Assembly (NCBI GenBank): GCA_020773975.1 | Contig: GCA_020773975.1_3638.1 | Source of the DNA: a phage | Length of the DNA: 64,000 nt | Direction: 5' to 3' (one strand) | Shown: positions 32,421 through 39,462 of the stretch, piece after piece | Layout of the letters: every line of letters starts with the position of its first letter | Position numbering within the stretch: position 1 is the stretch's first letter | Program-made: the position numbers and the translations under genes | The notes under the pieces: model-generated | Seen by the model: only the letters and a program-made list of their open reading frames with translations | Database searches by the model: none | What the model was told of the DNA's origin: nothing

Positions 32421-32493
32421 GGGAGTGTAGATCAGTTAGTAGATCGCTCGACCGATAATCGAGAGGACGTAGGGGCAGAGCCTACCACTCCCA
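32421..32493 (+). tRNA. tRNA-like, apparent anticodon GAT (Ile), with non-canonical T-loop (possible pseudo-tRNA)
   Basis: Acceptor gggagtg/cactccc, anticodon arm ctcga-ccGAUaa-tcgag (C33), T-arm gtagg-GGCAGAG-cctac lacks the TTCRA consensus. Confidence 0.4.
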
Positions 32494-32687: not shown

Positions 32688-33251
32688 GTGCGTATGAGAT
32701 ACTTGAAATATTTATCGTGGATTCTGTTAGCACCTCTTGACCCAATTATGTCGGTTCTATGTGTTATTCTGGCTCCTTTTGTTGTTCCGTTCTATAATGA
32801 GAAGACAGGGCATCTACCTTATATTTTCAGGTGGATGGAAACATATGATAATCCTATAGATGGTGACAGAGGACACATAGAGAGATGGGAAGAAGTCCGT
32901 AAAATAGGAAGTTTTGGTGTTTACCTACAACGAGTTGCTTGGTTGTGGAGAAATAAAGCCTACAATTTTTCCTATCACGTACTTGGACGTGAAATCACAT
33001 CTGTGACAAAGTGGAAAGGAAACATCCATGTAAGCTCTGATGTGGAGGATAATCAACAAGGCTATTTGTTGATGTGGAATGACAATGCGTGGGGTGTATT
33101 CGCGTTTGTCCCGTCTTTTAGATTGTTTGGAAAACAATTTTACTGGCGAATTTATGTCGGTTGGAAACTGAAGAGTGTGGTTCCTGAAGACAGAGCTTTT
33201 TCAAGAGAGAGAGTGATGTTGGCATTTTTCATAAGTCCTTTCCGAAAATAG
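32688..33251 (+). CDS. Hypothetical membrane protein inside the tRNA array
   Basis: N-terminal hydrophobic helices (LSWILLAPLDPIMSVLCVILAPFVVPF); 187 aa. Confidence 0.4.
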   Translation: MRMRYLKYLSWILLAPLDPIMSVLCVILAPFVVPFYNEKTGHLPYIFRWMETYDNPIDGDRGHIERWEEVRKIGSFGVYLQRVAWLWRNKAYNFSYHVLGREITSVTKWKGNIHVSSDVEDNQQGYLLMWNDNAWGVFAFVPSFRLFGKQFYWRIYVGWKLKSVVPEDRAFSRERVMLAFFISPFRK

Positions 33252-33256
33252 TTTTT

Positions 33257-33336
33257 AATGAGAGTAGCGTAACTTCACTGGGTGAAGGCTGGCCTCCAAA
33301 ACCAGTGACTAAGAGGTTCGATTCCTCACTCTCGTG
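33257..33336 (+). tRNA. Non-canonical tRNA-like gene with apparent 8-bp acceptor / 4-bp T-stem, 6-bp D-stem; possible anticodon CCA
   Basis: Hand fold: acceptor atgagagt/actctcgt, D hairpin cttcac-tgg-gtgaag, anticodon arm gctgg(c)-cuCCAaa-(a)ccagt, T-arm gagg-ttcgatt-cctc. No CCA encoded. Confidence 0.35.
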
Positions 33337-33340
33337 CAAA

Positions 33341-33413
33341 AGGGGATTAGCATAGTGGCCTAATGCAACGGGCTTTGACCCCGTGATCGGTTGTTCGAAT
33401 CAACCATCCCCTG
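33341..33413 (+). tRNA. tRNA-Gln (anticodon TTG)
   Basis: Acceptor aggggat/atcccct, anticodon arm acggg-cuUUGac-cccgt, T-loop ttcgaat, CCA encoded. Confidence 0.7.
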
Positions 33414-33931: not shown

Positions 33932-33953
33932 CCAAAATATTCTGGTTCTTTGA

Positions 33954-34041
33954 CCGAGTGGTCGATGGTGACGGCCTGTTAAGCCGTTGGGAGGAATCTC
34001 CCCACCGAAGGTTCGAATCCTTCAGGAACCGCCAATTCTTG
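33954..34041 (+). tRNA. Class II (Ser-like, long variable arm, G73) tRNA carrying apparent anticodon GTT (Asn codons)
   Basis: Acceptor ggttctt/aggaacc, D-arm acc-gagtggtcgat-ggt, anticodon arm acggc-cuGUUaa-gccgt, variable hairpin gggag-gaat-ctccc, T-arm gaagg-ttcgaat-ccttc, G73, CCA encoded. Confidence 0.5.
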
Positions 34042-39081: not shown

Positions 39082-39111
39082 TGCAATATACCTTTATAGG
39101 TTTCGATGAGG
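39082..39111 (+). CDS. terL: Terminase large subunit, micro-exon 2a (Walker B region ...QYTFIGFDEG)
   Basis: In-frame segment between two intron cores encoding a hhhhDE Walker B-like motif; stop follows within 6 codons unless spliced. Confidence 0.45.
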
Positions 39112-39462
39112 GTAGAACAGTGTGCTCTCTATAAACCCCTTTAATTGACGGGTAACTCTTTATACATATCACCACTAAGTAGGTATGGTAACATATTTAT
39201 GGTCAACGGTAATGACGTTGAGTATAGTAACAGTGTGAATGTTTAGACAATCCGCAGCGAAGCATCCCTACGGGATGAACGTTCAACGACTATCGCTTAC
39301 GGGCGTTAGGGCCAAGCGGTGAGGGAAACCTCCGGTTGATTATCAACCGCCGAAACAGGGGGGTGTGTAATAACACACAAGATATAGTCTGATCTGCATG
39401 GTGACATGCAGCAGCACGTAGTGGTGCGGGATAAGAGTAGCGATCTTATCTGAACAAAAACG
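39112..39462 (+). mobile_element. Group I intron 2 in terL (~351 nt, ORF-less)
   Basis: Q aauccgcagc (39246), R guucaacgacuaucg, S aagauauagucu (39381), then the shared block cugcauggugacaugcagcagcacguaguggugcggg. Ends in G before ACA CAA TTC... Confidence 0.6.

Follow-up and report, generated by a model that had tools for sequence, protein, structure and literature searches.

Transfer RNAs (tRNAs) with an 8-bp acceptor stem and a 4-bp T stem (8/4) are known as phage tRNA-Ser and tRNA-His, as allo-tRNAs and as an '(8/4) tRNA1 with an E-loop', all of which are treated in the text of Mukai et al. (2017, NAR 45:2776, PMC5389517). In this study we analyzed a 64,000-nucleotide stretch of phage DNA (contig GCA_020773975.1_3638.1 of assembly GCA_020773975.1), hereafter the window, and found at positions 33258-33336 of its plus strand a 79-nt element which is a variant of this 8/4 class and belongs to a widespread family largely missed by annotation. 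Judged from its sequence, we consider the element, with a probability of roughly 0.78, to be a functional phage tRNA-Trp with a non-canonical core. The sequence of the element, its fold, conservation, covariation, synteny and phage restriction are established by the analyses described here, and from these we infer its expression, processing, charging and decoding.

As read directly from the sequence, the acceptor stem of the element is built from an 8-nt 5′ strand, AUGAGAGU (33258-33265), and a 3′ strand, ACUCUCGU (33328-33335), which together form eight pairs (seven Watson-Crick and one U.G). The first of these is A33258-U33335, in the last one the eighth base, a U, pairs with A33328, and the discriminator G follows at 33336. 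In the T arm (33313-33327), the stem GAGG/CCUC carries a canonical UUCGAUU loop, and since A49 (A33312) and A65 (A33328) cannot pair, the length of this stem is 4 bp. Between the acceptor and D stems lies an expanded connector, AGCGUAA (33266-33272), of 7 nt instead of the usual 2, containing an invariant A9 and the 5′ strand of a short helix formed with the variable region (the E helix). The D arm (33273-33287) has a 6-bp stem, CUUCAC (33273-33278) with GUGAAG (33282-33287), and a 3-nt loop, UGG, likely to provide the equivalents of G18 and G19. A single G (33288), equivalent to position 26, separates the D stem from the anticodon arm CUGGC/CUCCAAA/ACCAG (33289-33305), in which U33 and A37 are present and the anticodon CCA (Trp) occupies 33296-33298. 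The variable region, UGACUAA (33306-33312), is 7 nt long and carries the 3′ strand of the E helix. Downstream of the discriminator, positions 33337-33339 read CAA where relatives encode CCA. The first-pass annotation of this stretch had proposed the 8-bp acceptor, the 6-bp D stem with its 3-nt loop, the 4-bp T stem, a possible CCA anticodon and a canonical TTCGATT loop. All of these are present in the sequence; the three stems are moreover conserved with compensatory changes in 31 homologues, and the anticodon is conserved in the family. Of the proposed span, 33257-33336, the end was placed correctly and the start has to be moved one base later. The long acceptor-D connector and its pairing with the variable loop, which are the oddest traits of the element, and the short 7-nt variable region were absent from that annotation.

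The bacterial Trp identity set comprises the anticodon CCA (C34, C35, A36), G73 and the first pair A1-U72 (PMC9976931). The set is complete in the element, with CCA at 33296-33298, G at 33336 and the pair A33258-U33335. The same anticodon loop (CUCCAAA), G73, A1-U72 and T loop are found in E. coli tRNA-Trp (trpT), and the anticodon stem-loop as a whole is of the E. coli-like Trp type. We defined an adaptor-type tRNA by 12 stacked acceptor and T pairs, the T-loop motif UUCRAUY, a D loop containing GG for the elbow, and a 7-nt anticodon loop with U33 and a purine at position 37; the element has 8 + 4 stacked pairs, the T loop UUCGAUU, the D-loop GG and, in its 7-nt anticodon loop, U33 and A37. 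Because all that the translation machinery gauges is kept, namely the 12-bp branch with its T loop, GG in the D loop and the anticodon loop, the tRNA probably works in translation. The gene would be transcribed together with the tRNA array in which it lies, the tRNA-Trp would be released by RNase P and 3′ processing, its CCA end would be added or repaired, and host TrpRS would charge the product, which would then read UGG during infection. In the predicted molecule, which has a 12-bp coaxial acceptor/T branch, the GG-containing D loop would form the elbow, and the tertiary core would be replaced by the longer D stem and the connector:variable helix. Formally, this helix converts the four-way junction into two stacked three-way junctions.

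For comparison with canonical tRNAs we used a cloverleaf with a 7-bp acceptor stem, a 5-bp T stem, a 2-nt connector, a D stem of 3-4 bp and a D loop of 7-11 nt. By RF00005 and ARAGORN the element falls outside this class: ARAGORN made no call of a 7/5 fold at 33257-33336 with default settings, and the Rfam tRNA model (RF00005) gave no match to it at the gathering score of 29 bits. Relaxed ARAGORN settings (-ps80, -ps60) produced a 71-nt 'tRNA-Trp' whose acceptor stem is badly paired, and a run with introns allowed produced a 'tRNA-Phe(gaa)' with a 13-nt intron; neither is credible. With no credible 7/5 fold from these programs, the 8/4 geometry suggested by the first-pass annotation held. RF00005 also missed nine of ten family members tested, the tenth giving a partial match of 29.5 bits.

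The phage (8/4) tRNA-Ser and tRNA-His and the allo-tRNAs, as the text of PMC5389517 describes them, share with the element the 12-bp branch split 8/4 and a long D stem with a tiny loop. The phage (8/4) tRNAs are further alike in that they lie in phage tRNA clusters and are missed or mis-scored by standard finders. The element, an 8/4 tRNA within a phage tRNA array, thus belongs with them, its isoacceptor being Trp and not Ser or His. The family represented by the element differs from the phage (8/4) tRNAs and allo-tRNAs of that paper in being Trp (CCA, G73), a word with 0 occurrences in the main text, and in combining a short variable region with a 7-10 nt connector that pairs with the variable loop. 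An 8/4 or 9/3 split of the 12-bp branch is an allo-tRNA trait that the element shows (8/4; a 49:65 pair is impossible), whereas the long variable arm and serine identity of allo-tRNAs are replaced by a variable loop of 6-7 nt and the Trp identity set. Beyond the work on 8/4 and E-loop tRNAs, we found no earlier account of a Trp member or of a connector:variable helix in the literature as far as the sources consulted extend.

A kinship with tRNA-Sec-like allo-tRNAs, as put forward in the first-pass annotation, would make the element a serine-charged recoding tRNA of tRNA-Sec or allo-tRNA type, acting in missense or nonsense recoding. Apart from the 8/4 branch and the 6-bp D stem with its tiny loop, this reading draws on the best Rfam match of the element, which is indeed tRNA-Sec (RF01852). 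tRNA-Sec is similar in its 6-bp D stem with a 3-4 nt loop, in the 4-bp T stem of its 9/4 form and in a potential 6-bp anticodon stem. However, the match scored 34.4 bits, well short of the gathering score (47), and its acceptor was misaligned, so that the covariance-model search gave the proposed kinship no backing. tRNA-Sec, defined by at least 47 bits, a 13-bp branch (8/5 or 9/4), a long variable arm and a UCA anticodon, also has a 2-nt connector, and the element departs from it in all of these: its branch has 12 bp, its connector is expanded and its CCA anticodon, G73 and A1-U72 specify Trp. In the text of PMC5389517, the long variable arm, which the element lacks, serves as the determinant for SerRS and is among the traits that define tRNA-Sec and allo-tRNAs. 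Nor was there a sign of UGA read-through in the window, where 15 TGA-terminated open reading frames (ORFs) have in-frame extensions with a median of 6 and a maximum of 19 codons. We therefore regard a Sec- or allo-tRNA-type function as extremely improbable, and the kinship was dropped in favor of a tRNA-Trp.

Relatives of the element were found in phages of distant groups. In Salmonella phage PVP-SE1 (Seunavirus) an annotated 81-nt tRNA-Trp occupies the syntenic site directly 5′ of tRNA-Gln, and its D stem (UUGCAG/CUGCAA) differs from that of the window element (CUUCAC/GUGAAG) by three compensatory pair changes. A related 82-nt gene of Bacillus phage Bc431v3 is annotated as tRNA-Trp, with a tRNAscan score of 19.55 and the label 'possible pseudogene'. 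Pattern scans with the anticodon loop plus T arm and with a 3′-half signature retrieved 26 viral and 26 metagenome loci, while the 3′-half signature had 0 matches in 185,579 bacterial and archaeal species, represented by one genome each. The 31 distinct homologues come from Vequintavirinae, phi92-like Stephanstirmvirinae, Bacillus Bastillevirinae and uncultured phages. BLAST added members in Citrobacter phage Tr1 and Salmonella phage SSBI34 and located one subtype in 60 cultured phi92-like coliphage genomes; among the 25 matches listed of these 60 genomes, none has a tRNA annotation at the site of that subtype. As far as these sequence searches reach, the E-helix tRNA family is phage-restricted and spans distant phage groups. 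To assess the tRNA complement around its members, ARAGORN was applied to 19 loci with a family member, several with 20-32 tRNA genes and a few with none or one. No canonical tRNA-Trp was found in any of them, and the one Trp that the program called corresponds to a family member whose start it had shifted; therefore, the family gene fills the Trp slot. In the window, too, neither ARAGORN nor Rfam detected a second Trp tRNA.

The architecture of the family was parsed from 36 unique sequences. An 8-bp acceptor stem is followed by an invariant A, by a connector of 7-10 nt (consensus A-R-N-N-U-U-A-A-A) and by a D stem of 5-7 bp with a loop of 3-5 nt (UGG, UGGU), a few members having instead 3-4 bp and a 9-nt loop. 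One nucleotide separates the D stem from a 5-bp anticodon stem with the loop CUCCAAA; the variable loop has 6-7 nt in all members and ends in AA, and on the 3′ side there are a 4-bp T stem and G73, with CCA encoded in most members. The window element follows this plan in its 8/4 branch, its connector starting with A, its long D stem and its variable loop ending in AA. From five family members other than the window element we derived a covariance model with the E-helix structure included (model R1), which matched the element over its full length (model positions 1-80) with 67.6 bits (E ~5e-18), and this was the only strong match in the 64-kb window. Scores of family members ranged from 57 to 100 bits, those of ordinary tRNAs reached at most 49.

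In the E helix, the bases at positions 2-4 of the connector and at positions 2-4 of the variable loop complement each other, and most members other than the window element have three of three pairs. The helix occurs as GGU/ACC, GUC/GAC, GUC/GGC, GAU/AUC, AGU/ACU, ACC/GGU, ACU/AGU, GCU/AGC and ACG/CGU, and in the Bacillus phages it changes from AAC/GUU to AGC/GCU. When partners were swapped between sequences in a set of 18 distinct connector/variable combinations, 31.6 ± 2.7 cells were paired, compared with 44 of 54 in the real combinations, a value reached in none of 20,000 shuffles; as the sequences are related, these shuffle counts are not probabilities. In an alignment of the 31 homologues fitted to the model, 94.4% of the cells were paired (46-48% with slid partners), the covariation score was 0.81 (at most 0.13 with slid partners), and 20 of the 26 pairs were changed on both sides. 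Compensatory changes affected seven of eight acceptor, all six D-stem, four of five anticodon-stem and all three E-helix pairs. Since this alignment was fitted to the model, we repeated the analysis blind to structure, with MAFFT: 91.6% of the cells were still paired, the E helix was 81.7% paired with covariation in all three of its pairs, and RNAalifold recovered the acceptor, D and anticodon stems and the 4-bp T stem. The eighth acceptor pair was U-A in 25 sequences of the model-fitted alignment and G-C in six (five from Bacillus phages, with a bulged A, and L041); in the structure-blind alignment it was U-A in 25, G-C in one and unpaired in five. G73, which the search pattern did not force, was present in all 31 homologues, and A1-U72 in 22 of them.

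These patterns bear on the view that the element is a decaying tRNA-Trp pseudogene, that is, a once canonical gene that received an insertion near position 8, lost the closing pair of its T stem and became non-functional. The tRNAscan-SE label of the Bacillus phage homologue, the failure of ARAGORN and Rfam to make a call, the irregularities of the window copy (its CAA end, C31.A39 and an imperfect E helix) and the presence nearby of another aberrant gene, the tRNA-Ile-like one at 32421-32493, would all fit such decay. Pairing of 94% with 20 covarying pairs is, however, not expected of a pseudogene, and phages of both Gram-negative and Gram-positive hosts share the odd architecture, each stem that varies doing so with compensatory changes. 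With G73 invariant and the gene being the sole Trp tRNA in the arrays examined, decay is a very unlikely explanation, and a functional tRNA-Trp accounts better for the conservation.

Several observations weigh against a functional tRNA-Trp. The C31.A39 mismatch leaves four standard pairs in the anticodon stem of the window element and weakens it; the same C.A is found at 31:39 in 10 of the 31 homologues. The 3′ end of the gene is CAA and not CCA, a feature of the window copy only, as Escherichia phage Av-05 and metagenome contigs L048 and L057 have CCA on an identical or near-identical gene (in Av-05 the second pair of the T stem is G.U, not A-U). The E helix of the window is irregular: in the register of the family it has one of three pairs (G-C), in a shifted register two (A-U and G-C, with AG at 33266-33267), and in a register with a bulged A four, C-G and G.U being added (AGCG, 33266-33269). 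In the minimum free energy (MFE) fold of the RNA (z = -2.3) the 8/4 acceptor and T arms are kept, but the D and anticodon arms are replaced by one central hairpin (UCACUGG/CCAGUGA). Nearest-neighbor energies were -26.0 to -26.4 kcal/mol for this alternative and -22.9 to -23.8 kcal/mol for the cloverleaf, a deficit of 2-3 kcal/mol, to which including the E helix adds a further penalty of about 4 kcal/mol. Among 28 family members, only three had the E helix in their MFE folds. Folding energy alone neither supports nor excludes this helix, the case for which rests on covariation. Several members share a tendency to pyrimidine-pyrimidine mismatches (C.U, U.U) in their acceptor stems. Finally, that the anticodon, A49 and position 65 are constant is in part a product of the search, as its patterns prescribed CUCCAAA and the T arm (AAGRGG...CCTCMC).

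The acceptor mismatches lie at positions 2-5 in several independent lineages (e.g., L002, L017, L028, L032, L037, L041 and L047), and acceptor position 4 is unpaired in 7 of the 31 sequences. As for the 3′ end, Av-05 and phage 18-1-2 encode a CCA tRNA nucleotidyltransferase (Av-05: L194:37094-38338), an enzyme that could add or repair ends like the CAA of the window; blastn gave no match to it within the 64-kb window.

A tRNA-like RNA that is made but does not decode would also be compatible with part of these data. Such an RNA might serve as a decoy or sponge for a host tRNA-directed nuclease, TrpRS or a toxin, or as a regulatory or priming RNA. The strongly non-canonical core and the recurring acceptor mismatches speak for it. 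There is also a precedent in the text of PMC5389517, where irregular 8/4 tRNAs, one of them with an extra acceptor-D loop, were uncharged or unused in E. coli translation. The E-loop (8/4) tRNA1 from acidobacterial soil metatranscriptomes (PMC5389517, PMC7609411) resembles the window element in its 8/4 branch and in extra acceptor-D nucleotides, described as a 'fifth loop', and in vitro it was uncharged by the E. coli GlyRS and ThrRS tested (PMC5389517). It differs in its GCU anticodon and U73 and in its location in polycistrons possibly linked to toxin-antitoxin systems. The text of the paper mentions no base pairing between this extra loop and the variable region, and the likeness drawn here is one of description. 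Against a non-decoding role speaks the conservation of every part required in translation, which includes the 12-bp branch with its T loop, GG in the D loop, U33 and A37 as well as Trp identity and an encoded CCA, and the gene occupies the Trp slot in arrays otherwise without Trp. We thus find this alternative quite unlikely and retain a decoding tRNA-Trp as the preferred reading.

Candidate reasons for the rebuilding of the core in a decoding tRNA-Trp are evasion of nucleases or toxins by which the host attacks tRNAs, a change in decoding dynamics, and neutral drift. The second of these is suggested by analogy with E. coli tRNA-Trp, where changes near position 9, in the D arm and in the hinge alter UGA decoding, as in the Hirsh G24A, A9C and 4-bp anticodon-stem forms (PMC13092985). 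The element is unlike these variants in that its core is wholly rebuilt rather than point-mutated, and its unpaired anticodon-stem position is 31:39, not 27:43. A Hirsh-like recoding of UGA found no support, given the short extensions after TGA noted above and an ordinary use of TGG in the window (14.6 per 1000 codons). That the phages keep a truly different translation-competent fold, with the connector:variable helix replacing the core and two stacked three-way junctions as the result, because it alters how host systems perceive the tRNA (for instance through immunity to tRNA-directed defense nucleases or toxins) or makes its decoding Hirsh- or A9C-like, is a tentative and rather unlikely proposal. 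As a separate observation, the family member at L098:4792-4870 (-) and L172:974-1052 has G27.A43 and A31.C39, which leaves three standard anticodon-stem pairs, and its eighth acceptor pair is G-C; an unpaired 27:43 is linked to UGA reading in the 4-bp anticodon-stem tRNA-Trp (PMC13092985).

If the RNA is functional, coliphages that are common and well studied, namely phi92-like Stephanstirmvirinae (including phages of the BASEL collection) and PVP-SE1-like and Av-05-like Vequintavirinae, as well as Bacillus phages carry a tRNA-Trp unreported by routine annotation, and published phage tRNA repertoires and codon-supply analyses would systematically lack Trp. It would also be a natural, E. coli-compatible tRNA with a different core, which combines the 8/4 branch with a D arm like that of tRNA-Sec and with a connector:variable helix. 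As such, it would bear on the true requirements of RNase P and the CCA-adding enzyme as well as those of TrpRS, EF-Tu and the ribosome, and might offer a chassis for orthogonal tRNA engineering. The restriction of the family to phages, across distant groups, raises the question of whether the rebuilt core is protective against host tRNA-targeting defenses.

The E-helix scaffold is not strictly Trp-specific. On uncultured phage contigs the same scaffold was found three times with the anticodon UUU (Lys; L126:10524-10602, L137:7716-7798 (-) and L035:518-599), in each case with the 8/4 branch, the long connector and the connector:variable helix, and it was found once with UCC (Gly; L038:9828-9907). 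All four carry a U discriminator. An anticodon-free T-arm search and a structural descriptor gave no other anticodons, the remaining matches being canonical tRNAs or false positives of the descriptor.

A second odd type of phage tRNA-Trp (CCA) was observed at L069:9756-9836 and in L070, L072, L073, L078 and L071. The AAGGGG/CCUCA T arm recurs in it, next to a D arm that is near-canonical, and its variable arm is a hairpin (GUC-GUUU-GAC) with a stem identical in sequence to the E helix that is split in L017 and L033; this identity may reflect an evolutionary link or coincidence. Over-long forms of tRNAs that are normally class I are present in the related arrays as well: tRNA-Glu of 88-89 nt (L036, L066, L053 and L028), tRNA-Ile (UAU) of 92-97 nt (L010, L033 and L038), tRNA-Cys of 84-87 nt (L041 and L047) and a further one at L003:2783-2868. 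In an 86-nt 'tRNA-Lys' of PVP-SE1, ARAGORN reads a 4-nt anticodon. A metagenomic phage contig with a family member also encodes a tRNA with the anticodon CUA (L053:10093-10167 (-)), of amber-suppressor type and labeled tRNA-Pyl by ARAGORN.

As to the genomic setting, the window is ~96% identical to Escherichia phages Av-05, 18-1-2 and TH18 over the queried 4-kb segment of the tRNA array and is, judged by its sequence, an Avunavirus-like coliphage (Vequintavirinae, Avunavirus). The array extends on the plus strand over ~29.4-34.7 kb and comprises 15-16 tRNA genes according to ARAGORN and Rfam, the former calling 15 tRNAs and the latter giving 14 tRNA matches. tRNA-Gln begins at 33341, 4 nt 3′ of the tRNA-Trp-like element. 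Within the array, between tRNA-Gly and the Trp gene, there is a 187-aa ORF (32688-33251, plus strand) with the Pfam domain DUF7338 (E = 3e-65), in the place of which PVP-SE1 carries tRNA-Glu. The aberrant gene at 32421-32493 (plus strand) was matched by the Rfam tRNA model with 53.4 bits and not called by ARAGORN even at a relaxed threshold; its anticodon is GAU (Ile), position 33 is a C and the T loop, GGCAGAG, is aberrant, and it is possibly a tRNA-Ile that is degenerate or unusual. Although tRNA-Asn usually belongs to class I, the tRNA-Asn (GUU) at 33944-34034 (plus strand) has 91 nt; in the ARAGORN fold its anticodon stem has 6 bp and its variable arm, with a stem of 5 bp, is class-II-like, and long tRNA-Asn genes are found also in PVP-SE1 (85 nt) and L037. 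Outside the array, the window contains two group I introns (Rfam RF00028), at 743-981 on the minus strand (74.7 bits) and at 39086-39411 on the plus strand (67.9 bits).
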